Both the position numbers and the translations under genes were made by a program. From Sulfurospirillaceae bacterium (lineage in GTDB: Bacteria > Campylobacterota > Campylobacteria > Campylobacterales > Sulfurospirillaceae), in assembly GCA_033723415.1 (NCBI GenBank), contig JAWVXD010000003.1, positions 96,001 through 160,000 on the forward strand: a stretch of 64,000 nt of DNA. Direction: 5' to 3'. Below the pieces are notes generated by a model. It saw only the letters and a program-made list of their open reading frames with translations, was not told the DNA's origin and searched no databases. Position 1 is the stretch's first letter; every line of letters begins with the position of its first letter. This document shows, in pieces, positions 2,577 to 13,713 of the stretch.

Positions 2577-2715
2577 CAAAGAAATGGAAAACAAAAGGAT
2601 GGAAAACAAGTTTGTAGAGTTGATGAGAGATCGTGTTTTAGCGATATATCATCAAAGTTTTTGTGTAAGCAAAAATGCATCTGTAAACAGGAAAACAAAG
2701 AAATGGAAAACAAAA
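2577..2715 (+). repeat. 20-bp direct repeat CAAAGAAATGGAAAACAAAA (2577-2596, 2696-2715) plus additional GGAAAACAA units
   Basis: Exact 20-mer present twice. GGAAAACAA occurs at 2586, 2601, 2690 and 2705. Confidence 0.85.
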
Positions 2716-3941
2716 TGCAAAACAAAACTCAACATTATTTATTTACCAGTGAAGTTGTCAGTCCAGGACATCCTGATAAGTGTGCGGATATTATAGCTGA
2801 CAGTATTGTCGATAAACTTATTATCGAAGACAAAAATTCTAGAGTTGCCAGTGAAGTATTCTTGGCTGGAAAACATATTATCATAGGTGGAGAAGTTACT
2901 ACTAAAGCAAAGATGACTGCTAAAGATTATCAAAAGATAGTCAAAGAAGCACTTATTAAAATTGGTTATGACGGTAAATCTTCTTTTACAAAAGAGCAAT
3001 GCCTTTACCCTGATGAAGTGGAGGTTCAAGTACTTTTAAACCATCAATCACCTGATATCAATCAAGGAGTCGATCAGACAAGCGGAGAGATAGGAGCAGG
3101 AGATCAGGGCATTATGTTTGGCTTTGCTTCAAATGAAACAGCTGATTTTATGCCATCAGCCATTATGTACGCTAGAATGTTGTGTGACAAAGTGTATAAT
3201 TATGCACTTAAACACAATCATAAACTAGGTGTTGATATCAAAACACAAGTTACTATGGATTATGGTACAAAAGAAAATTTTGAAAATTGTCAGCCTCAGA
3301 AAATTCATACTATAGTGGTTTCTGCACCATCAGTGGAAAATATGCCTATTGAAGAAGTTCGAGCATTGATCAAAGGTCTTATCGACGATACAGGTCTTCC
3401 GACTGATCTTTATGATCCAAATGACACTATTATTCATATAAATCCGACTGGAAGATATGTAAATCACAGTTCTCTTCATGACTCTGGTTTGACAGGTAGA
3501 AAACTTATAGTAGATAGTTTTGGCGGTTATTCTCCTATAGGCGGTGGAGCACAATCTAGCAAAGATTATACAAAAGTAGATAGAAGCGGTCTTTATGCGG
3601 CACGCTGGATAGCAAAACACATAGTAGCCAGTGGACTTGCAAAAAAATGTTCAGTTCAACTTTCATACGCTATTGGTGTTGCAAAACCGGTATCTGTAAG
3701 CGTAGATACATTTGGAACTTATACGCTTGTGAGTGATGATATCCTTTCTAACTTTGTTATGGATACTTTTAGCTTGACTCCAAAATGGATCACAAATAAA
3801 TTTAAATTAGATCATCCAAGTAGTGAAACTTTTCTTTATGCAGATGTAGCAGCACGTGGTCAGGTCGGACAGAGTGATTACCCATGGGAAAAATTAGATT
3901 CATTGGATCTTTTTGAAACTTTAAAGAACATATACAGTTAG
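2703..3941 (+). CDS. metK: S-adenosylmethionine synthetase
   Basis: FTSEVVSPGHPDK, GAGDQG, DSGLTGRK and GGGAQSSKDYTKVDRS motifs. Start is most likely ATG 2703 or 2715 rather than TTG 2661. Confidence 0.96.
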   Translation: MENKMQNKTQHYLFTSEVVSPGHPDKCADIIADSIVDKLIIEDKNSRVASEVFLAGKHIIIGGEVTTKAKMTAKDYQKIVKEALIKIGYDGKSSFTKEQCLYPDEVEVQVLLNHQSPDINQGVDQTSGEIGAGDQGIMFGFASNETADFMPSAIMYARMLCDKVYNYALKHNHKLGVDIKTQVTMDYGTKENFENCQPQKIHTIVVSAPSVENMPIEEVRALIKGLIDDTGLPTDLYDPNDTIIHINPTGRYVNHSSLHDSGLTGRKLIVDSFGGYSPIGGGAQSSKDYTKVDRSGLYAARWIAKHIVASGLAKKCSVQLSYAIGVAKPVSVSVDTFGTYTLVSDDILSNFVMDTFSLTPKWITNKFKLDHPSSETFLYADVAARGQVGQSDYPWEKLDSLDLFETLKNIYS

Positions 3942-3955
3942 TTTATAATTAAGAC

Positions 3956-3987
3956 GTAAAAGTGTGTGAATAATCACACACTTTTAC
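3956..3987. terminator. Probable bidirectional terminator between convergent metK and M20 genes
   Basis: Perfect 14-bp inverted repeat GTAAAAGTGTGTGA-ataa-TCACACACTTTTAC. Confidence 0.8.
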
Positions 3988-3991
3988 TTGA

Positions 3992-5149
3992 TTATTTAAT
4001 CTTTGTTTCAAAAACTCTAAGCAGTGAGACGGTTAAGATTATAAATCTCTCAATAATAGAATCTTTTTCGATAAATTCATTTCTACTGTGATCATCTGCT
4101 CCTATTGGACCAAAACCATCAAGTACCGGAGTATTTACATTTGCTATTGCATTTGCATCAGAAACACCTCCTCGAAATTCTCTCCCGAATTTTACATTAT
4201 ATCCTTCTATGATATTTTTAAGATCTTCGTAAAAGGAGAGATTGAGTGTCGATTCTTCCATGCTCCCTCTACCGCTGGTAATCTCTAACTTACTTGTGAC
4301 ACCGTCAACAAAGTTCATAGAATCAATCTCGGCAAGTTTTTGTTTTATATTTTTTTCATCATCACTATTTGTAAAGCGAATATCTATAGTTGCTTTTGCA
4401 TAGTCACTTATAGTGTTCGGTCCTACTCCTCCTGAAATCTTGCCGACATTAGCAGATATTTGTGTGTTTGTATCATTAATATTTTCGATTTCAATTATCT
4501 TGTGTGCAAGTTCTAAAATCGCACTTTTTTTCCCTGCAATTTTAAAGGCCGCATGTCCGGCTTCTCCAAAACATTCTAGAGAAGCTCCGATTTTGCCTTT
4601 TCTTCCTGTTACTATTTCACCGTTATGTCCAGCTCCCTCTAAAACAAAAGCTGCAGCTGATCTTTTTGCCTCTGTTTCAATATAAGGCTTTGAGAAAGGT
4701 GAACCGATCTCTTCGTCAGAATTAAAGAAAAAAGTTACCGGTATCTTTTTTAGTAGATTTTTATGTTCCAAAAACTTCAAAGTCATAATACCGATAAGAA
4801 GACCGCCCTTCATATCAAATACACCAGGACCCTTTATGATACCATCACTCTCTGTATAATCTAAAAAACCGGCATCTTGAGGAAATACAGTATCCATATG
4901 TCCACATAGCATTATCTGTGTGTTTTTAGTTTTGACAGCAGGAGTACTGGCTCTAAGTAGATTCCCGTACGTATCACTTTCGATAGTCTGATAATCAAAA
5001 GAAGTTCCAAGATAAGACTTTATCGTATCTAGTACTTTGTCTATACCTGCTTTATTGTAACTATAACTGTTGATCTCGATAATCTTTTTAAAGAGCATGA
5101 AGAATTCATCTTCATGCTCACTAAAGTATTGTTTTAGCTCATTTTCCAT
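3992..5149 (-). CDS. M20-family metallopeptidase (glutamate carboxypeptidase G2-like)
   Basis: GHMDTVF, GPGVFDMKGG, SDEEIGS, GVSDAN and DGFGPIG..DH motifs. Confidence 0.9.
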   Translation of the reverse strand: MENELKQYFSEHEDEFFMLFKKIIEINSYSYNKAGIDKVLDTIKSYLGTSFDYQTIESDTYGNLLRASTPAVKTKNTQIMLCGHMDTVFPQDAGFLDYTESDGIIKGPGVFDMKGGLLIGIMTLKFLEHKNLLKKIPVTFFFNSDEEIGSPFSKPYIETEAKRSAAAFVLEGAGHNGEIVTGRKGKIGASLECFGEAGHAAFKIAGKKSAILELAHKIIEIENINDTNTQISANVGKISGGVGPNTISDYAKATIDIRFTNSDDEKNIKQKLAEIDSMNFVDGVTSKLEITSGRGSMEESTLNLSFYEDLKNIIEGYNVKFGREFRGGVSDANAIANVNTPVLDGFGPIGADDHSRNEFIEKDSIIERFIILTVSLLRVFETKIK

Positions 5150-5158
5150 GTATGAGTC

Positions 5159-6742
5159 TTATCTATATTTTTCAAATGCAAATGGTTGATTATACTCTTC
5201 CATCGTCATGTCTGGATAATCTACTTCTTCTCCGCTCCACGGTTTTTTCAGTTTTAGATTTCCATTTTCTGCATGTACTACGTTGTCTCTGTGAAGAGGG
5301 ATCTTACCGCCGGCAGTTGCTAGGTATCTAGGTATCGCATCACCAGAGATATTTCCATACATACTCTCAACTATATCTCTACCGACAGAAACAGGTACTC
5401 TCATGTGTGCAAACTCAGGATTTCTAAAGCTACAGTTGAACAAGTAGTAAGGTCTGATGTAAGACTCTTGCAATGCTTCACATAGTTTCCACATTTTGTT
5501 TCTTGTGTCGTTAATACCTCTAAGGAATACTGCTTGATTTAAGATAGCACTTGTCACTTTGCTAAGCTTTCTAAATGCTTCATGTGATTCAGGTGTCAAC
5601 TCTTGTGCTGAGTTGATCTGCGTTACAAATCTAAGTGGTTTGATATCGTTACTTTTTTCACAGATCTCCAAAAATTTATCATCGATTCTTTGTGGTGTCA
5701 TGATAGGGATTCTGCTTCCCAATCTTTTGATCTTGACATGAGGAATCTTGTCTAATTCATTTAATAAGTATTCGATTTTTTTATTTGATAAAGCCAGTGC
5801 ATCACCGCCTGTAATAAGAACGTCTCTGATATTTTCATCATTTCTTATGTAATTTAGTGCTTCTTCATAAGTATTATTTGAACTAACCCAGTCTTTATCC
5901 GATATATGTGCAATTCTCAAACAGTGTGTACAAAACATAGCACACATATTTGTAGCTTTTATAGTTAAGACTCTTGGATAAAATTGGTCTATCAATCTTG
6001 CAGGTGAGTGATCACTTGCAACAGGTTCAAGTTCTATACCATTGTTATCGACCATATCTCCGGTAGGTACACTTTGGAGTAAAATAGGGTCATTTATTTG
6101 GTTTGGCATTATTAAACTTGCGTAGTATGGAGAGATTCTCATCCTAAAAACTTTAGATACTCTTTGGATATCTTCTATAAGTTTTTGAGGAATATCTATG
6201 ATGCTCGCAAGTTGTTCAGGAGACGTTATAGCATATTTTATTTGTCCTGCATAAGAATCCCAGACTTCATCTGTCATTCCTAGTTTCTTCTGTATTTTTC
6301 TTCTGTTCTCTAACATTTGTTCATGTAAGTCAAAACCGCTTGGTGCGTCATCTTTGTTATTATCCAAGTAATCTTTGACTCTTGCGTTTGCTTTTTCAAC
6401 TATCGGCAGTGCTGAATATACTCTACCTCCAACTGACACGCGGTGTTCATCTGTATTTTTATGTTTCATTGCCATCAAATACAGTTCATCTTTGTCAATA
6501 CCGATGTCTTCAGGAGTCGCACCGAATTTTTCTCTTATAGTTTTTAGTTTATTGAATAGTTGAACCATCGGATTGGTTAATTTTTGTGAAGTTTTACTGA
6601 TTTCCAGCCACTCTTTTACTTCGTCAATATCTTTTTGACTTACTTCTTTTTTATCGTTTGAAGGTTCATATAAAAGCTCGAATAATTTTATATCAAATTT
6701 ATCAAGTTTCTCTAGATCCTCATTGCTAACAGCACATTCCAT
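5159..6742 (-). CDS. KamA-family radical SAM/PLP aminomutase, glutamate 2,3-aminomutase-like, with N-terminal extension
   Basis: CAMFCTHC (CxxxCxxC), DVLITGGD, NQAVFLRGIND, RPYY, and GGKIP with the PLP lysine. Confidence 0.88.
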   Translation of the reverse strand: MECAVSNEDLEKLDKFDIKLFELLYEPSNDKKEVSQKDIDEVKEWLEISKTSQKLTNPMVQLFNKLKTIREKFGATPEDIGIDKDELYLMAMKHKNTDEHRVSVGGRVYSALPIVEKANARVKDYLDNNKDDAPSGFDLHEQMLENRRKIQKKLGMTDEVWDSYAGQIKYAITSPEQLASIIDIPQKLIEDIQRVSKVFRMRISPYYASLIMPNQINDPILLQSVPTGDMVDNNGIELEPVASDHSPARLIDQFYPRVLTIKATNMCAMFCTHCLRIAHISDKDWVSSNNTYEEALNYIRNDENIRDVLITGGDALALSNKKIEYLLNELDKIPHVKIKRLGSRIPIMTPQRIDDKFLEICEKSNDIKPLRFVTQINSAQELTPESHEAFRKLSKVTSAILNQAVFLRGINDTRNKMWKLCEALQESYIRPYYLFNCSFRNPEFAHMRVPVSVGRDIVESMYGNISGDAIPRYLATAGGKIPLHRDNVVHAENGNLKLKKPWSGEEVDYPDMTMEEYNQPFAFEKYR

Positions 6743-6792
6743 CTTATATCCTTTTAAATTTTGTTATTTCGTTATATCTTTAAATATAACAT

Positions 6793-8193
6793 TTAATTAG
6801 GGCAATCTATTGATCTATCAATCGTAGATGAGATCATTTCTTTGCCAATAGCTATACCGTGATTTATATCTTTAAAATTTTTGCCGAGTGCTACGACTCG
6901 TGCTAAAAATGAACCTTTGTTTACAATAAAATTTTGTCCTACGTGTTCTAGTATCATATGCTCCTTATCTATTTGGTTTTCCATTATTTTTTTAAATATT
7001 TCTAATTCATCACTTCTATGTACAAGGCCGCTATTTGTTTTTGATGTAGCTTCAAGTTTATAGTTATATGTTTCCCAAAAAATATCTTGATTGTTAAAAT
7101 CAGGTTCTATCATGTTTGGGGCTTTTTTATTTTGTGTTACGGCATAAAACTCAATCTCCGGCAAATTTGGAGCATTTTCTGGAAGTATGCAGTTTAATGT
7201 GCAGCAAAATTCCATAGTAGTACCTTGTTTCCTGGGATTTGTTTCTATAAAAAACACTTCATCTTTATCTGTTACGATAAAATCGCATCCAAAGATACCT
7301 CTATATCCAAGTTTTGCCATTTTTTTACCTATTTCTCTTGTTTGTCTTATAATTTCTTCTTTCACACTTAAAGAGACACGTGAAGGGAAAGCTGAACCCT
7401 TGAATTTTGTACCGTCTATTGTCTGATCTGCGATTCCTGCAACGTATATATCTTCTTCATTTATCGCTACGCAAAGAGTTGTCGGATCACATACGTGAGG
7501 TATGAATTTAGTTATTAAAAATTGGTCATCTTTATTTTTGCCAAATTTTTGAGTTATACTATCAATATCTTTAGCGATCAAGCTGTTTACTCCGGCTGCG
7601 CTTTTTTCAAGTGAGATAAAAATACCGTTGTTATCTTCAAAAGATTTGAGTAGCAAAGCCGATTTTTTTGTCAATTCTTCAAATCCGTTTGCAATTTCAT
7701 AAGGAGCCATAGGGACTATATTAGAAAAGATTTCATAAAGAGCAATTTTATTGCTTAATAACGATACTATCTTTTCATCCGGACCTATTACTCTGATTCC
7801 ACTTTTTTGATCCAATGTCATATGACGATTGGACTCGAACATATAAATAAAAAGTTCTTTTTGCTTTCTCAAAATTGTGTCTGTTAGATCATTTATGTAT
7901 TCGCTGTTGGAAACATCTCGCATAAAAAGATCATTGCTCTTTCTTTTATTCTCTCTATCTTTGATTTTATTGACGACTATTATGTTTTCGAAATTATAAT
8001 TGTCAAATACATCCGGAACTATCGTTATACACTCTATATTTGCTTTATCTATATGGTAAATCTTTGAAATTGCCTCTTTGGCAAAATTGCCTATTCCAAA
8101 TGCCTTTATCTCTGTTATAAACAAAAAATAATATTTATTTTCATCATATGTAAAATTTGTAAACCTAATATCGCTATGCATTGGTTTGCTCAT
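6793..8193 (-). CDS. ATP-grasp ligase
   Basis: C-terminal ATP-grasp signature GYRGIFGCDF...FIETNPR; also SNKIAL and SAAGVNS loop. Confidence 0.82.
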   Translation of the reverse strand: MSKPMHSDIRFTNFTYDENKYYFLFITEIKAFGIGNFAKEAISKIYHIDKANIECITIVPDVFDNYNFENIIVVNKIKDRENKRKSNDLFMRDVSNSEYINDLTDTILRKQKELFIYMFESNRHMTLDQKSGIRVIGPDEKIVSLLSNKIALYEIFSNIVPMAPYEIANGFEELTKKSALLLKSFEDNNGIFISLEKSAAGVNSLIAKDIDSITQKFGKNKDDQFLITKFIPHVCDPTTLCVAINEEDIYVAGIADQTIDGTKFKGSAFPSRVSLSVKEEIIRQTREIGKKMAKLGYRGIFGCDFIVTDKDEVFFIETNPRKQGTTMEFCCTLNCILPENAPNLPEIEFYAVTQNKKAPNMIEPDFNNQDIFWETYNYKLEATSKTNSGLVHRSDELEIFKKIMENQIDKEHMILEHVGQNFIVNKGSFLARVVALGKNFKDINHGIAIGKEMISSTIDRSIDCPN

Positions 8194-8843
8194 TGTTTTT
8201 CTATCTCCCTTAACAATATGATTTTTGTTCCTGTCTCAAAATAATGCTCTCTAATCACTTCTTCTATCTGTTTCTTATTCCTGGATTTTACTGCATCAAC
8301 AATCTTTTGATGCCTATTTGTGATCTCATCTAAGGTATATAACTTTGTCCAATTTCTAAAAAAAAGTATTTGAGATAATTTGTTTATTCTTTCCAGTGTT
8401 TCAAGAAAGACAAAGTTTTTTGCATATTTGAGATAATGTTTATGAAATAGTTCACCTATTTTTACTACTTTTTTTGAGTCATTTACCGATTTGCTCATTA
8501 GAAAGACATAATGCTGTAAAAGGTCCATATCTTCTTGCGTAGCATAAAGAGCAAAGTTTGATGCAAGAAAACCTTCAACGACACCTTTTGCTTCATATGT
8601 GTCAAAAATATCTTTTGAAGTTATCTCTTTTACAAAAACGCCTTTTCTTTCCACATGTTCTAATATTCCGATTGATACAAGTTGTGCAAGAGCTTCTCTT
8701 ACAGGAGCACGACTTACTTTTAATTTATTGGCTAGATGTGCTTCTCTTATTTGCATTTTCTTTTTATATTCTTCATTTACAATGGCATCATATACATAGT
8801 CTACGATCTTATCTCGAAGTGGTTTTTTGTGTAAATCTGACAT
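8190..8843 (-). CDS. GntR-family (FCD/VanR-type) transcriptional regulator
   Basis: HTH REAHLANKLKVSRAPVREAL, and FCD-domain histidines (FHKHY, RHQKIV, REHY). Confidence 0.92.
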   Translation of the reverse strand: MSDLHKKPLRDKIVDYVYDAIVNEEYKKKMQIREAHLANKLKVSRAPVREALAQLVSIGILEHVERKGVFVKEITSKDIFDTYEAKGVVEGFLASNFALYATQEDMDLLQHYVFLMSKSVNDSKKVVKIGELFHKHYLKYAKNFVFLETLERINKLSQILFFRNWTKLYTLDEITNRHQKIVDAVKSRNKKQIEEVIREHYFETGTKIILLREIEKQ

Positions 8844-8856
8844 CGCTATTTTTCCT

Positions 8857-8897
8857 TATAATTGTCGACAATATTTATTGAATTGTCGACAATTATA
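8857..8897. promoter_or_regulatory. Tandem palindromic operator (2x ATTGTCGACAAT), probable GntR autoregulatory site
   Basis: Palindromes at 8861-8872 and 8882-8893, centres 21 bp apart, immediately upstream of the GntR start. Confidence 0.75.
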
Positions 8898-9054
8898 TAA
8901 GAATTAACTTTATTCTTAACTTAAACTTTATTTTTAAATTATTAGTATTGCTCAATAATTTTTTCTAAAATTTCATATTTTTTAAAAAATAAGCAATAAA
9001 TGTAACAAATTGTAACCAAATATCAAATAACATGTGGTTTTAACTAAAAGTTTA

Positions 9055-9083
9055 TTGACATAAAACAAAAATAATACTTTAAT
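9055..9083 (+). promoter_or_regulatory. Putative sigma70 promoter of the TAXI-TRAP operon
   Basis: TTGACA-N17-TTTAAT. Confidence 0.5.
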
Positions 9084-9125
9084 AAAAACTGAATCTTCGT
9101 ATGATTTAAATAAACCTTAAAGGAG

Positions 9126-10091
9126 TTGAAATTGAGGAAATCTTTACTTATAGCGGCCAGTGTTTTGGTTGCAATACCGGCAGTGGTAAGTGCTACGCAA
9201 TTTATTACGATTGGTACAGGCGGCGTTACAGGTGTTTATTATCCAACTGGGGGTGCAATTTGCCGAATGGTAGACAAATCAAAAGCAAAGACACATATTA
9301 GATGTGCAGTCCAATCTACTGCAGGTTCTGTCTTCAATGTGAATTCTGTTAAATCAGGTGATCTAGATTTTGGTATCGCTCAAAGTGATGTGGTATATCA
9401 AGCTTACCATGGACAGGGAATATTCAAAGGAAAAGCGCATAAAAACTTGAGAACTCTTATGACGATTTATCCTGAATTGCTCACTTTAGTTGTTAGAAAA
9501 GACTCAGGTATTAAAAATATAAAAGATATTGAAGGGAAAAGAATAAATATAGGAAATCCTGGAAGTGGGCAAAGAAATTCAACAGATCTACTTTTTAAAG
9601 AAACATCTCTTAGCAAAAGTGGATTAAAAGAAGCAAAAGAGTTAAAAGCTGCAGAAATGCCTGATGCTCTTAAAGATGGTCATATAGACGGTTATTTCTA
9701 TATGGTAGGTCATCCAACTTCAAATATTAAAGATGCGGCAAATTCAGTTGATATAGATTTAATTAATATTACGTCTAAGACTCTACCTGGATTGACAAAA
9801 TTCTTGAAAAAACATCCTTATTATGCAATGGGAACTATTCCAAAAGATATGTATAAAGGTGTTGATCATGATACAAGAACTTTCGGTGTTAAAGCAACAT
9901 TGGTAACAAATGCTAAAACAAGCGATAAAGTTGTTTTGGCGGTTATGAAAGCTGTACTTGATAATTTTGCAGCATTTAAAAAACTTCACCCAGCATATAA
10001 AAATATAACAAAGAAAAGTTTACTTGAAGGGTTGGGAGCTCCTTTGCATCCAGCAGCTAAAGCATATTTCAAAAAACTTGGTATTTTGTAA
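9126..10091 (+). CDS. TAXI-family TRAP transporter solute-binding protein
   Basis: Signal peptide followed by ITIGTGGVTGVYYPTGG, STAGSVFN, GNPGSG and PLHPAA motifs. Confidence 0.93.
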   Translation: MKLRKSLLIAASVLVAIPAVVSATQFITIGTGGVTGVYYPTGGAICRMVDKSKAKTHIRCAVQSTAGSVFNVNSVKSGDLDFGIAQSDVVYQAYHGQGIFKGKAHKNLRTLMTIYPELLTLVVRKDSGIKNIKDIEGKRINIGNPGSGQRNSTDLLFKETSLSKSGLKEAKELKAAEMPDALKDGHIDGYFYMVGHPTSNIKDAANSVDIDLINITSKTLPGLTKFLKKHPYYAMGTIPKDMYKGVDHDTRTFGVKATLVTNAKTSDKVVLAVMKAVLDNFAAFKKLHPAYKNITKKSLLEGLGAPLHPAAKAYFKKLGIL

Positions 10092-10111
10092 AAATACTTT
10101 TGATTCTTCAA

Positions 10112-10136
10112 ATTGCCCTGCCTTTAGCGGGGCAAT
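10112..10136 (+). terminator. Intercistronic stem-loop / partial terminator
   Basis: ATTGCCCTGC-cttta-GCGGGGCAAT after the TAXI gene; no strong U tract. Confidence 0.55.
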
Positions 10137-10211
10137 AAATTAAGGATATCTCTAAAATACAGGAAGGGAATATTTTATAGATGTCCTAAAGATAATCTAC
10201 AAGGATAAAAC

Positions 10212-12380
10212 TTGAAAGAGAAAATTGATAAGGATGAATATTTAGAAGATATTCAAGATAAAAACAAAAAAGAATTCGATGAACTATCTGAGCTTGATGA
10301 AAGTAGTATCCCAAGTGAAGATCATATGACTGCCGAAGAGAAATTGATAAGTGAGCTTGAGGGACAAAGGGTATTTCAAAAAGGTACATATAAATATAAA
10401 TTTATAACAATAGTTGCATTTACTTGGTCATTGTTTCAGCTATTTATAGTTATGAATCCAATCAATAGTGTATTTTTGCGCTCAATTCACTTGGCTTTTG
10501 CCGTTGTTTTGGCATTTACACTTTATCCGATCATAAAAAAACCACATTTAAGAAATACAATAACTTGGTATGATTTGTTATTTGCAGCTATCGGTGTTGC
10601 TGCTGTATTATATCAATCTTATGAATATAGTGCGTTGGCTATGCGTTCAGGCTCTTGGACACAAACGGATGTAGTCATGGGAATGTTGGCAGTAGTTGTG
10701 GTATTGGAGACTGCAAGAAGAGTTATGGGTTTACCGCTATCTGTTGTTGCCATAGTGTTTTTGGTGTATGATTATTTTGGGCCGTATATGCCTGATATAA
10801 TTGCACATAAAGCCGCGAATTTCTTTCAGCTGGCTGGACAAATGTCTTTAACTTCTGAAGGGATTTATGGTGTACCTCTAGGAGTCAGTGCTTCCTATGT
10901 CTTTTTATTTGTTCTTTTTGGTTCCCTTCTAGATCGTGCAGGAGGGGGCGAATATTTTATAAAGCTTGCATATACTTTATTGGGAAGATATGATGGAGGC
11001 CCTGCAAAAGCTTCTGTTGCAGCCTCAGGTCTTATGGGTATGATCTCAGGTTCTTCTATAGCAAATACTGTTACGGTTGGAACCTTCACTATCCCTCTTA
11101 TGAAAAGATTGGGATTTTCATCAAATAAAGCAGCAGCTGTTGAAGTATCAGCATCTGTTAACGGTCAACTCATGCCTCCTATTATGGGTGCTGCAGCATT
11201 TATTATGGCGGAATTTTTAGGACTTAGCTATAGAGATGTTGTCTTTGCAGCATTTCTTCCTGCTTTTGTTTGTTATTTTTCTCTATTTTATATCGTTCAT
11301 TTAGAAGCAAAAAAAGCCGGTATAAAAGGGGAAGATCCATCCAAACTGGGACGAGCATGGCCTATTTTTATAAAAGGGCTACACTATTTAGTTCCTATAT
11401 TTTTTCTTATGTATACGCTAATAGTACTTAGACAATCGGCTCAAAGTGCTGCATTTAACGCAATCATATTTATGATGCTGATCATGGTTTTACAAAAGCC
11501 ACTAAGAGCAATATTAAATAAAGAAAAAATAACACGTAGTATTTTGATGGAAGGTTTTACAGACATCGGTCAAGGTATGATAAACGGTGCAAAAGGCATG
11601 ATACCTATAGCTGCCGCAACAGCCGTTGCAGGTATTATTGTGGGTTCTGTTACATTGACAGGTATCGGGTTGATCTTGGTTGATGTTATAGATCAGTTAT
11701 CACATGGATATATTATTCTGGTCTTGCTATTGACTGCTATCACTTCGTTGATATTAGGAATGGGGCTTCCAACGACTGCAAACTATATCGTTATGGCTTC
11801 TTTGACGGCTCCTGTTATAATGCAATTATCAGCTCAAAACGGATATGTCATCCCTATGCTTGCCGCTCATATGTTTGTATTTTATTTTGGTATTTTAGCA
11901 GATGATACGCCACCTGTGGGATTAGCGGCATATGCCGCTGCAGGGATAGCAAAGGCAGATCCTGTCAAAACAGGTTTGCAGGGATTCTTTTATGACATAA
12001 GAACAGGACTTTTACCGTTTATGTTCTTTTTTAATAACAAACTTCTGATGATAGATCATGTCGACAAATTAGATCCTGATGATTCTACAAAGTGGGTATG
12101 GATATCAAATCCTTTGGAAATAGGAGCTATTTTTCTTGCCGCCCTTCTTGGAATGTTTGCTTTTACATCAGCAACGCAAGGATGGATGCTTACCAAGATT
12201 AGCACAGTAGAAAGATTACTTCTTATATCTGTCATACCTTTTGCAATGCAGCCTCAACTTATGGTAAATCATCTGGATTTACCAAATGAATATGTCAGTT
12301 ATATTGTCGCTCTATTGATTTTTGTAGCTGTGTATATGATCCAAAAAGTAAAAGTTAAAAAAGAAGTTATTGCAAGTTGA
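10212..12380 (+). CDS. TRAP transporter fused 4TM/12TM permease (TAXI-type)
   Basis: Highly hydrophobic; GGPAKASV, SGSSIANTV, GQLMPPIMGAAAF, GMGLPTTANY and DDTPPV motifs. Confidence 0.93.
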   Translation: MKEKIDKDEYLEDIQDKNKKEFDELSELDESSIPSEDHMTAEEKLISELEGQRVFQKGTYKYKFITIVAFTWSLFQLFIVMNPINSVFLRSIHLAFAVVLAFTLYPIIKKPHLRNTITWYDLLFAAIGVAAVLYQSYEYSALAMRSGSWTQTDVVMGMLAVVVVLETARRVMGLPLSVVAIVFLVYDYFGPYMPDIIAHKAANFFQLAGQMSLTSEGIYGVPLGVSASYVFLFVLFGSLLDRAGGGEYFIKLAYTLLGRYDGGPAKASVAASGLMGMISGSSIANTVTVGTFTIPLMKRLGFSSNKAAAVEVSASVNGQLMPPIMGAAAFIMAEFLGLSYRDVVFAAFLPAFVCYFSLFYIVHLEAKKAGIKGEDPSKLGRAWPIFIKGLHYLVPIFFLMYTLIVLRQSAQSAAFNAIIFMMLIMVLQKPLRAILNKEKITRSILMEGFTDIGQGMINGAKGMIPIAAATAVAGIIVGSVTLTGIGLILVDVIDQLSHGYIILVLLLTAITSLILGMGLPTTANYIVMASLTAPVIMQLSAQNGYVIPMLAAHMFVFYFGILADDTPPVGLAAYAAAGIAKADPVKTGLQGFFYDIRTGLLPFMFFFNNKLLMIDHVDKLDPDDSTKWVWISNPLEIGAIFLAALLGMFAFTSATQGWMLTKISTVERLLLISVIPFAMQPQLMVNHLDLPNEYVSYIVALLIFVAVYMIQKVKVKKEVIAS

Positions 12381-12388
12381 CTAAAACT

Positions 12389-12420
12389 AGAAATGAGTGA
12401 TTGAATCGCTCATTTCTTTT
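12389..12420 (+). terminator. Rho-independent terminator
   Basis: AGAAATGAGTGAT-tga-ATCGCTCATTTCT followed by T residues, between convergent genes. Confidence 0.75.
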
Positions 12421-12441
12421 CTTATATCTAAATATCTGACA

Positions 12442-13713
12442 TTATATACCGATCGCCTCGCTTATTCCTCCGTTTGCACTGTGATATATGATTGTATGAT
12501 ACTTCCTAGAATAAAATTTTAAAAGAAGATTTTGTAAAGTCGGTTCAGTAGAAGGAGTGAACCAGGCATTGTTACTGATCGCGACCATTCGTTTTGGGTT
12601 ATTTTCGAAGAGTTCGTCCGTTGTGGCTTCAAAACATATAGCATTTCTAAATTTTTCCCCTTTGATATTAAAATCATGCGGTTTTTTTGCATTCGCAAAA
12701 TCACTTGAAGAGTTAAAAAATATACGATTGATAAACTTACCTAAGAATGAAGGTAAAGGAATCTCTTCACCAAAAGGGACAAGTACGACTTTGTTCGCTA
12801 TCTCTACATTTCCGTTTTGAAAAAAGTAAGTAGAGTTATATATTTTGTCATCCTTATACGACAACGCACCTGTTATAATGTCTATCCTTTTTGAAAGTGA
12901 TTCAAGTTTTACGAGTTCCTCAGGTGACATATCCAGATATATCGGGAAAGCCGTTTCCGGCAAAATGATCAAATCAAATTGGTTTTTTATAGCTTGTTCT
13001 ATTTGATAATAATTATTTTCCAAAATCTCGTTTTCATACTTGGGATCCCATTTGTCCTTTTGGTTAAGATGCATAGATACGGTTTTTATACGCAGAGTAT
13101 TATTATCAGCTTTGTGTGGCTGATTATATGTTGCTAAAAGTAAAAAAATCAAAGATAAAACTTTGTACCATCGTTTGAGCTTTACAAGCAGTAATATTGC
13201 GATCAAAAATGATATATATGTCATCATCAAGGGATTGAAATAAGAGTTCGACAAAGATAGTTCAAGTTTTAGCCAATTGAAACCAAAAGGATGAATAAAA
13301 CTTATCGCAAAAACTAGAAAAGTTTTGATATAGATATTGTTCTCAAAAGCTCCAACAATCCTAAAAATTATCCCGTATATGAGACCTATGCCTAAGATCA
13401 CAATAGGAATCAGATAAGCTAAATGATAGTAAATAAAACTAAAAGAAATCCAATAAAACCATAAGATCCCAATAAAAAAACCTATCCAAAAAAATTCATA
13501 ACGATTGCTTTTTAGAAGTAGATAAAATCCTAATATCGCGATTAGCGAATAGGCGGGTTTAGACTCGAAATTCAAATATGTTAAAAAAATAAAAATTGAT
13601 AAACAAAAAGCTACGGCAAAGCCTTTTATTATATAAGAAGTGGTAAAATGACCACTTACAAAATTTTTATTAAAGGATTTACATGCAAGGCGGTACAAGT
13701 ATGTTAACTTCAT
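12442..13713 (-). CDS. lnt: Apolipoprotein N-acyltransferase
   Basis: TM N-terminus; nitrilase-fold triad motifs LPETAFP, NKVVLVPFGE and AICFE. Exact start uncertain (ATG 13713 chosen). Confidence 0.9.
   Translation of the reverse strand: MKLTYLYRLACKSFNKNFVSGHFTTSYIIKGFAVAFCLSIFIFLTYLNFESKPAYSLIAILGFYLLLKSNRYEFFWIGFFIGILWFYWISFSFIYYHLAYLIPIVILGIGLIYGIIFRIVGAFENNIYIKTFLVFAISFIHPFGFNWLKLELSLSNSYFNPLMMTYISFLIAILLLVKLKRWYKVLSLIFLLLATYNQPHKADNNTLRIKTVSMHLNQKDKWDPKYENEILENNYYQIEQAIKNQFDLIILPETAFPIYLDMSPEELVKLESLSKRIDIITGALSYKDDKIYNSTYFFQNGNVEIANKVVLVPFGEEIPLPSFLGKFINRIFFNSSSDFANAKKPHDFNIKGEKFRNAICFEATTDELFENNPKRMVAISNNAWFTPSTEPTLQNLLLKFYSRKYHTIIYHSANGGISEAIGI

Follow-up and report, generated by a model that had tools for sequence, protein, structure and literature searches.

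A mobile, widely conserved ligase–aminomutase–amidohydrolase module and its possible role in anaerobic glutamate or β-amino-acid metabolism

What reaction sequence would call for an ATP-grasp ligase, a radical S-adenosylmethionine (SAM) aminomutase and an amide hydrolase made from one operon? The question is raised by a 64,000-nucleotide stretch of DNA, here called the window, from a Sulfurospirillaceae bacterium (GenBank assembly GCA_033723415.1, contig JAWVXD010000003.1, positions 96,001 to 160,000 of the forward strand). A preliminary description of the window singled out four tightly packed minus-strand genes for a GntR-type regulator, an ATP-grasp ligase, a KamA-family aminomutase and an M20-family metallo-amidohydrolase. 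The open reading frames and domain calls agree with that description, as do the coordinates that place the four genes between metK and a divergent importer of the TAXI family of tripartite ATP-independent periplasmic (TRAP) systems. Our analysis indicates that they represent an authentic pathway, one that is mobile, conserved widely and so far uncharacterised. We put the probability that the three enzymes conjugate, isomerize and release, acting on a glutamyl amide and driven by ATP, at roughly 60%. Transient-conjugate pathways (Puu, Bes, butirosin BtrJ/BtrG and LysX/LysK) characteristically place a ligase and a hydrolase around a modifying enzyme in one operon, and we favour this reading because the same bracketing is seen here and because the pocket of the mutase has changed. 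That the mutase acts on a conjugate, which acid and amine are joined, and in which direction the amino group moves are all points that we infer.

A colinear module on an accessory island

The best 80 of 229 confirmed related loci were compared, and counts out of 80 refer to these. They are drawn from Campylobacterota (Sulfurospirillum and others), Deferribacterota (Deferribacter) and many Thermodesulfobacteriota. Where there was room beside the mutase gene (at least 1.5 kb upstream for the ligase or 1.3 kb downstream for the M20 gene), the ligase gene immediately preceded it on the same strand in 65 of 68 loci, the exceptions being L026, L043 and L074, and the M20 gene lay directly downstream in 53 of 69; both flanked the mutase in 45 of 57. 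The preliminary description had staked its proposal beforehand on the three enzymes occurring together elsewhere, and they were found as a colinear unit in three phyla. The ligase family, none of whose 432 database matches carries a functional name, is essentially confined to this context. Several cultured carriers that the records of loci and proteins name (Deferribacter abyssi, D. thermophilus, D. autotrophicus, Desulfopila aestuarii DSM 18488, Desulfoprunum benzoelyticum DSM 28570, Desulfosediminicola species and Sulfurospirillum sp. 1307) make the module directly testable.

In the window, the ligase start and the GntR stop share 4 nt, and the remaining gaps in the operon are 50 nt and 9 nt. 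In each of three further genomes from this genus, metK directly adjoins lnt, and DNA homology to these congeners ends near position 3934 and resumes near 12459; the roughly 8.5 kb between these points is therefore an insertion. The four genes and the TAXI-TRAP importer are thus one accessory island between metK and lnt, and importer and enzymes are tied together because both sit in this one insertion. Of 301 Campylobacterales genomes sampled, three yielded the mutase, the window's own being one of them; it was found in none of the three congeners. The window's genome holds a single KamA-family gene. The distribution of the module is patchy, island-borne and horizontally mobile. metK had been put forward as the supplier of SAM to the mutase, a role that does not survive the comparison: it was found in 0 of 80 related loci, its adjacency to the module is an accident of the insertion site, and it is ruled out as a functional partner.

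The regulator scores above cut-off for both the GntR helix-turn-helix domain (PF00392, 50.3 bits) and the FCD domain (PF07729, 57.1 bits), which places it in the FadR-like (FCD) subfamily, and a GntR homologue heads the module in 18 of 80 loci. An operator of the operon's own, as previously suggested, is borne out by two exact copies of the palindrome ATTGTCGACAAT, spaced 21 bp. They are the sole matches in the window at up to one mismatch, where 0.25 would be expected, and two or more were reached in 3 of 100 shuffles. The pair overlaps a promoter-like site on the minus strand (−35 at 8919 to −10 at 8892), and the operator core TTGTCGACAA occurs in the regulatory region of 14 of the 18 GntR-bearing related loci, in three phyla. 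The GntR/FCD protein is likely an autorepressor, which would hold its own operon silent at the two palindromes until an effector appears.

A TAXI or TRAP permease gene stands beside the module in 32 of 80 loci. Other recurrent neighbours are genes for universal stress proteins and CBS-ACT proteins, each in a minority of loci, and the remaining neighbours look like lineage synteny. The usual companions of KamA-family enzymes, kamDE, ablB and epmA, are not partners here, in agreement with the preliminary description; EpmA/efp did not appear in the neighbour scans, and no search was aimed at them. The coordinates of the features are collected in Table 1. Upstream of metK and outside the island, the window also encodes an OmpR-type response regulator and a HAMP histidine kinase (65-2456), which are syntenic in at least one congener (L123).

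Table 1. Features of the island and its borders, with positions counted from the first letter of the window
Feature	Position	Strand	Remarks
metK	2661-3941	+	borders the M20 side of the island
Accessory island, ~8.5 kb	3935-12458		M20, mutase, ligase, regulator, TAXI, TRAP permease
Bidirectional terminator-like hairpin	3956-3987		14-pair stem, T-run on either strand; parts metK from the convergent M20 gene
M20 metallo-amidohydrolase gene	3992-5149	-	385 aa; proposed release step
KamA-family radical SAM/PLP aminomutase gene	5159-6742	-	527 aa; subfamily ~525 aa
ATP-grasp ligase gene	6793-8193	-	466 aa (462 aa from alternative start); proposed conjugate-forming step
GntR/FCD transcription regulator gene	8190-8843	-	217 aa
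ATTGTCGACAAT palindrome, two exact copies	8861-8872 and 8882-8893		putative operators for GntR, a short way upstream of its start
TAXI-family TRAP solute-binding protein gene	9126-10091	+	TIGR02122
Fused TRAP permease gene	10212-12380	+	722 aa; TIGR02123 650.5 bits

The aminomutase pocket and the ligase

The mutase passes the cut-off of the general KamA-family model (TIGR00238, 243.6 bits against 199.2) and fails those of the equivalogs for glutamate 2,3-aminomutase (TIGR04368, 337.1 bits against 650, the best-scoring curated equivalog), lysine 2,3-aminomutase (TIGR03820, 271.4 against 525.4), arginine aminomutase (244 against 600) and EpmB (192.8 against 369.3). It belongs to a distinct KamA-family subfamily and, by these curated cut-offs, can be called neither a lysine 2,3-aminomutase nor a glutamate 2,3-aminomutase. 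Members of the subfamily are 56-85% identical over their full length, including an N-terminal extension of about 115 aa that is kept family-wide. An Atlas search with the N-terminus gave a lead only (Pfam DUF8427, score 0.82), and no LAM_C domain was detected in the mutase by a Pfam scan.

The only solved relative is lysine 2,3-aminomutase (2A5H; E 2e-62 over 340 residues). In the alignment the mutase retains the CxxxCxxC motif (C267/C271/C274) for the iron–sulfur cluster, the carboxylate arginine (R276) and the lysine that binds pyridoxal 5′-phosphate (PLP; K480), and Ser438 and Thr476 occupy the positions of Asp293 and Asp330, the pair that holds the ε-ammonium group of the substrate in the lysine enzyme; all these roles follow the 2A5H literature. 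The Ser/Thr pair is the same in all eight subfamily members of a residue table that also held 12 paralogues from other genomes. R257, K262, N265, H279, S438, R440, D468, R472 and T476 are invariant in the family, and R257, K262, R440, D468 and R472 are different in the lysine-type paralogues. In five such paralogues, all from other genomes, Asp stands at both 438 and 476, and the residues at 257, 262 and 472 are non-basic. The loss of the residues for a free lysine side chain and the gain of invariant charged ones would fit a larger, acidic amide substrate, and the mutase does not look built for free lysine or free glutamate.

The same residues bear on a scheme without a transient conjugate, in which a free amino acid (glutamine, glutamate or another) would be converted to its β isomer, the ligase would build an end-product dipeptide, and the hydrolase would serve turnover, as in the cyanophycin, poly-γ-glutamate and carnosine systems. 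The product, a β-amino-acid dipeptide or a γ-glutamyl-β-amino acid, could act as a solute, buffer or signal. Ser and Thr would be suitable pocket residues for glutamine's amide group, the third gene is occasionally absent, and synthetase and hydrolase pairs are known to share loci (cphA/cphB, pgs/pgdS). We consider this scheme unlikely, however, since it leaves the five invariant charged residues of the subfamily unexplained, since making both maker and breaker from a single autoregulated operon would be wasteful, and since Pfam and NCBIfam scans found no export or storage function among the island genes.

A second alternative takes the pocket to be fitted to an acylated amine. Here the ligase would cap lysine, ornithine, diaminobutyrate or diaminopimelate with a protecting γ-glutamyl group on the side-chain amine, the mutase would move the free α-amino group of the capped residue to the β carbon, and the M20 enzyme (LysK/DapE-like) or an enzyme resembling γ-glutamylamine cyclotransferase would remove the handle to yield a β-diamino acid. 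Neutral Ser/Thr at the ε-ammonium sites would suit such a substrate, and the extra Arg and Lys residues together with Asp468 could hold the glutamyl head group. The M20 protein has matches, though weak ones only, to the DapE, ArgE and LysW-lysine hydrolase families, butirosin BtrJ/BtrG offers a precedent, and the scheme agrees with all the third-enzyme variants described below, including the one of γ-glutamylcyclotransferase (GGCT) type. Against it, no gene using a β-diamino acid (acetyltransferase, EpmA or nonribosomal peptide synthetase) is among the recurrent neighbours of the module, aminomutases elsewhere already accept free lysine well, the glutamate-type importer would have no obvious role, and the top curated match of the mutase is the glutamate model and not the lysine one. 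We regard protection of a diamino acid as distinctly unlikely.

A separate KamA-family paralogue of 599-614 aa was seen in Desulfoprunum benzoelyticum (L063 4016-5815, minus strand) and in L088 and L089. It has Lys aligned with position 438 and Arg or Lys at 476, falls below all equivalog cut-offs, and in Desulfoprunum lies divergently about 0.7 kb upstream of the module ligase. This paralogue may be a further aminomutase subfamily for an acidic substrate.

The ligase passes the ATP-grasp_3 cut-off (PF02655, 40.6 bits against 23.2). Its best sequence matches are weak and fail their cut-offs (LdmS, 35.2 bits against 475; BesA, 29.2 against 750), BesA being the best solved one, and an Atlas search returned unnamed ATP-grasp clusters only. 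The structural model (pLDDT 91.8) shows the three-domain ATP-grasp fold and has as its neighbours PurK, PurT, the peptide ligase 8YND, BesA, L-amino-acid ligases (BacD) and PylC, with Z 23-25.5 over about 350 residues; RimK-type structures rank low (Z 16-17). As PurK and PurT are the top neighbours by Z, the protein might be a PurK/PurT-like enzyme of carboxylase or formyl-transferase type with unrelated chemistry, or the genes might be neighbours without a common pathway. Either is very improbable in view of the colinearity across three phyla, the reading frames that overlap or nearly abut, the joint transfer as one island and the near exclusivity of the ligase family to the module. The genome, moreover, has its own purT elsewhere, on contig C9.

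That contig (G000 contig C9, ~45.6-49.1 kb; L085 531-9071) also carries a second M20 gene, adjoining purT and 32% identical to that of the window. The pair was considered as a further M20/ATP-grasp combination and rejected as unrelated, the ATP-grasp member being purT itself and the M20 gene belonging to a cluster with a dipeptide ATP-binding cassette (ABC) transporter, a Peptidase_C26 (γ-glutamyl-hydrolase-like) gene and an AstE/AspA-family gene. This cluster looks like a separate locus for the uptake and cleavage of peptides or γ-glutamyl peptides.

Importer, release step and direction

The solute-binding protein of the island scores 341.7 bits against the TIGR02122 cut-off of 84.35 and matches the VcGluP structure 8S4J with E 6e-87. 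The study of VcGluP, a glutamate-specific protein, reports that it binds L-glutamate at 65 nM, as well as glutamine and pyroglutamate, and that its critical ligand residues are Y45 and Q93 (PMC11574862). Nine of the 11 ligand-site residues that mutagenesis had defined are identical in the window TAXI, Y45 and Q93 among them, and these two are kept in all 22 TAXI proteins tabulated (20 from related loci, the window's and its paralogue on contig C7); the M201 position is Thr or Val in most module-linked TAXIs. The importer is accordingly predicted to be of glutamate type and would bring in L-glutamate or a close C5 amino-dicarboxylate. The paralogous TAXI-TRAP pair on contig C7 (G000, ~9.6-12.8 kb; L086 5545-8847) is 61% and 81% identical to that of the island, and its TAXI keeps Y45 and Q93 with Ala/Val at Y200/M201; the genome would therefore hold two glutamate-type TAXI systems.

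The M20 protein contains the Peptidase_M20 (PF01546, 76.7 bits) and M20_dimer (PF07687, 55 bits) domains. Its best curated families, PRK07338 (219 bits, cut-off 357) and glutamate carboxypeptidase PRK06133 (173.9 bits, cut-off 349), both fall short. The best solved relative is carboxypeptidase G2 (E 1.5e-15), and the two proteins align at HxD, D, EE, E and H, the metal-ligand positions of the family. Among known enzymes the M20 protein is thus closest to glutamate carboxypeptidases.

Further evidence on the release step comes from the 16 loci without an adjacent M20 gene, which have a small gene (five), an FGase-family gene (one), an insertion with a glutamine synthetase gene (four) or nothing (six) in its place. 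In the five Campylobacterota loci L001-L005 a gene of 165-183 aa replaces M20, and in L006 the replacement belongs to the FGase (N-formylglutamate-amidohydrolase) family. In L031, L032, L036 and L038, which come from one lineage of Desulfobacterales metagenome-assembled genomes, genes for a glutamine synthetase and a short second KamA protein are inserted after the mutase; M20 follows the insertion in two of the four, and the contig end comes first in the other two. The inserted synthetase scores 361 bits against the GlnA model, below the cut-off of 429, and the short KamA protein (358 aa) has Glu/Ala at the two specificity positions. L074 has no ligase and instead carries, upstream, a γ-glutamyltranspeptidase and an ABC importer of glutathione/dipeptide type.

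The M20 replacement in the Campylobacterota relatives is predicted to be a GGCT-fold protein. The model of the 165-aa member (pLDDT 94.5) gave 16 Foldseek hits at E ≤ 0.001, all of them GGCT, ChaC or AIG2 proteins, led by human GGCT (2I5T/3CRY/2RBH, TM 0.67) and then ChaC2 and YkqA. The family has an N-terminal YGSL motif, G8, S9, L10 and E85 are invariant in 23 sequences, and homologues are named γ-glutamylcyclotransferase or ChaC in public sources. It was the fold search alone that made the link, since Pfam AIG2_2 matched weakly (three of five members, best E 0.0011) and the family profile found nothing meaningful among PDB sequences. In G263, a 100%-complete relative, genes for ligase, mutase and GGCT-like protein are consecutive, and no M20 homologue was found at E ≤ 1e-10. 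Among metagenome loci of the GGCT-like family with upstream room, the 3′ end of a mutase gene lies directly upstream in 13 of 27; these linked copies are 57-100% identical to the reference copy, and the 14 unlinked ones 46-69%. No 5-oxoprolinase or other follow-up gene was found beside the GGCT-type loci, whose neighbours are prs, an ABC transporter, NUDIX, mnmA-like and fliMN genes. On one contig (L118 6313-8103; G203 contig C25) a class-III (omega) aminotransferase gene is followed after 7 nt by a GGCT-like gene of the stand-alone type; in other genomes of Sulfurospirillum type the stand-alone copy adjoins prs.

A glutamate theme thus runs through the ligand residues of the TAXI protein, the top score of the mutase for TIGR04368, the kinship of the M20 protein, the GGCT and FGase replacements and the γ-glutamyltranspeptidase of L074. 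A glutamyl conjugate, as the preliminary description had proposed, is the best-fitting intermediate on the basis of the importer, the M20 kinship and the M20 replacements. In the proposed pathway the ATP-grasp enzyme would use ATP to form an amide between a glutamate-type acid and an amine. With its [4Fe-4S] cluster, SAM and PLP, the KamA-family enzyme would shift the free amino group of the conjugate between the α and β carbons; its substrate would be the conjugate and not a free amino acid. An amidohydrolase would then split the conjugate, namely M20 here, the GGCT-fold protein in the closest relatives and in one case an FGase-family protein.

The GGCT-fold partner also bears on direction. 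In GGCT chemistry the α-amino group attacks the γ-amide to form a five-membered ring, and a β-glutamyl amide would need a four-membered ring. Because cleavage of this type requires an α-amino γ-glutamyl amide, release in the closest relatives would act on the α form, and therefore either the β-to-α direction is favoured or a different moiety is modified. β-Glutamate would then be ligated, its conjugate would become γ-glutamyl, and glutamate or 5-oxoproline would enter the cellular glutamate pool. A GntR/FCD repressor with a TRAP importer is typical of catabolic loci and less so of loci for osmolyte synthesis; the β-to-α direction fits this style, as it does the patchy, island-borne spread. We offer salvage or catabolism of β-glutamate as a possible, tentative version of the pathway.

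The preliminary description had the amino group move from α to β before release. We keep its three-step logic as probable, and its direction is disfavoured by the GGCT-type release. In that direction, imported L-glutamate would be γ-ligated to an amine and shifted on the conjugate, and M20 would free β-glutamate, or a β-glutamyl compound would itself be the product; ATP would let the product build up beyond its equilibrium with the glutamate pool, for instance to serve as an anionic compatible solute. The TAXI protein retains the L-glutamate residues of VcGluP, and M20 is the commonest third gene. Genes for universal stress proteins stand beside the module in clusters of nine and four loci (named from one representative each) and in L045, the operon of the four-locus lineage contains genes for a glutamine synthetase and for a second, short KamA protein, and record titles give marine, hydrothermal and soda-lake sources. 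The contextual support that these observations lend to the osmolyte idea is weak. A GGCT-fold enzyme would be unable to cyclise a β-glutamyl amide, yet it is the only third-enzyme candidate in G263 and the regular partner in Campylobacterota; the regulator and importer are in a style usual for catabolic loci; and no salt-responsive element was found. We judge the α-to-β direction doubtful.

If the ligase and the hydrolase each accept one isomer only, they would impose an ATP-driven one-way valve on a reversible isomerization. That an aminomutase acting on a glutamyl amide between an isomer-specific ligase and hydrolase serves as such a valve between β- and α-glutamate is a speculative idea, which we think possible rather than probable.

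Several observations weigh against the proposed pathway or its favoured direction. The third gene is absent beside the mutase in 6 of the 69 loci with room (L045, L054, L057, L059, L061 and L079) and also in G203, so that the module may do without its release step or obtain it in trans. Members of a stand-alone clade in the GGCT-like family adjoin prs in congeners, and genomes of the L001 type have prs exactly on one side of the module and the GGCT-like gene on the other; the adjacency of mutase and GGCT-like gene could be partly historical. The variants with glutamine synthetase and short KamA, γ-glutamyltranspeptidase and FGase come from one lineage each. The TAXI ligand residues fit an L-glutamate binder and no known β-glutamate binder, which favours L-glutamate as the input and hence the opposite direction. 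The fold of the ligase does not separate amino-acid ligases from PurK/PurT, the Z scores being tied within 2, and by sequence it matches amino-acid ligases weakly, at 29-35 bits. Clostridial glutamate 2,3-aminomutase reportedly has Lys/Asn at both specificity positions; the TIGR04368 cut-off was passed by none of six paralogues scanned nor by the short KamA protein of L032, so that our alignment included no bona fide glutamate enzyme.

Two of the loci that lack a third enzyme, L057 and L059 (Desulfofustis/delta-proteobacterial metagenome-assembled genomes), have ligase matches that span just 52% and 32% of the query. Their copies of the module may be in decay.

Relation to known systems

Full-text searching of the literature gave no paper on a cluster of KamA, ATP-grasp and M20 or GGCT genes, in line with the preliminary description, which knew of no characterised pathway with this trio. 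To our knowledge, all KamA-family enzymes characterised so far use free lysine, glutamate or arginine. A mutase clade with its own N-terminal domain, its own invariant pocket residues and a private ligase and amide hydrolase, carried by transfer into Campylobacterota, Deferribacterota and sulfate reducers, points to new substrate chemistry for aminomutases, and the module as a whole points to an unrecognised piece of anaerobic glutamate or β-amino-acid metabolism. β-Glutamate is an osmolyte of methanogens and is reportedly among the major free amino acids in marine pore waters; the β-to-α version, if true, would be the first defined route for its consumption by anaerobic sediment bacteria. The one-way valve, if true, would offer a general design principle for pushing a reversible isomerization against a large metabolite pool.

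The closest curated relative of the mutase is glutamate 2,3-aminomutase (Eam, TIGR04368, Clostridioides difficile type), with which it shares the radical SAM/PLP KamA fold, CxxxCxxC, the PLP lysine and the carboxylate arginine. It differs from Eam in its score (337 against 650 bits), its N-terminal extension, the Ser/Thr at the specificity positions, where Eam reportedly has Lys/Asn, and its constant embedding with a ligase and a hydrolase. With lysine 2,3-aminomutase (KamA/AblA, 2A5H) it shares the cofactor motifs, and it departs from that enzyme in Ser438/Thr476 for Asp293/Asp330, in the lack of LAM_C and in having none of the partners kamDE, ablB or epmA. The importer resembles VcGluP/VcGluQM of Vibrio cholerae (8S4J) in its ligand residues, although the window TAXI has Gly for S40 and Tyr for H123; its permease shares with that system the fused architecture and the DUF3394 tail.

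In summary, the parts of the module belong to known superfamilies, and their logic resembles that of known γ-glutamyl handle pathways. The Bes, butirosin BtrJ (ATP-grasp)/BtrG, Puu and LysX/LysK systems likewise use a ligase to make a glutamyl amide, modify it and then remove the handle. The module has no gene for a carrier protein such as LysW or ACP: the 9- and 50-nt gaps are too small for one, and no recurrent small reading frame of at least 80 aa, the floor of the caller used, was found in the neighbour clusters. Its matches to BesA and to the LysW-lysine hydrolase also lie far below the family cut-offs. BtrG, a γ-glutamylcyclotransferase, is mirrored by the GGCT-fold partner in the relatives of the window's module. 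What would set this module apart from the γ-glutamyl handle pathways is its modifying enzyme, a radical SAM aminomutase, whose reaction depends on the single amino group that is free.

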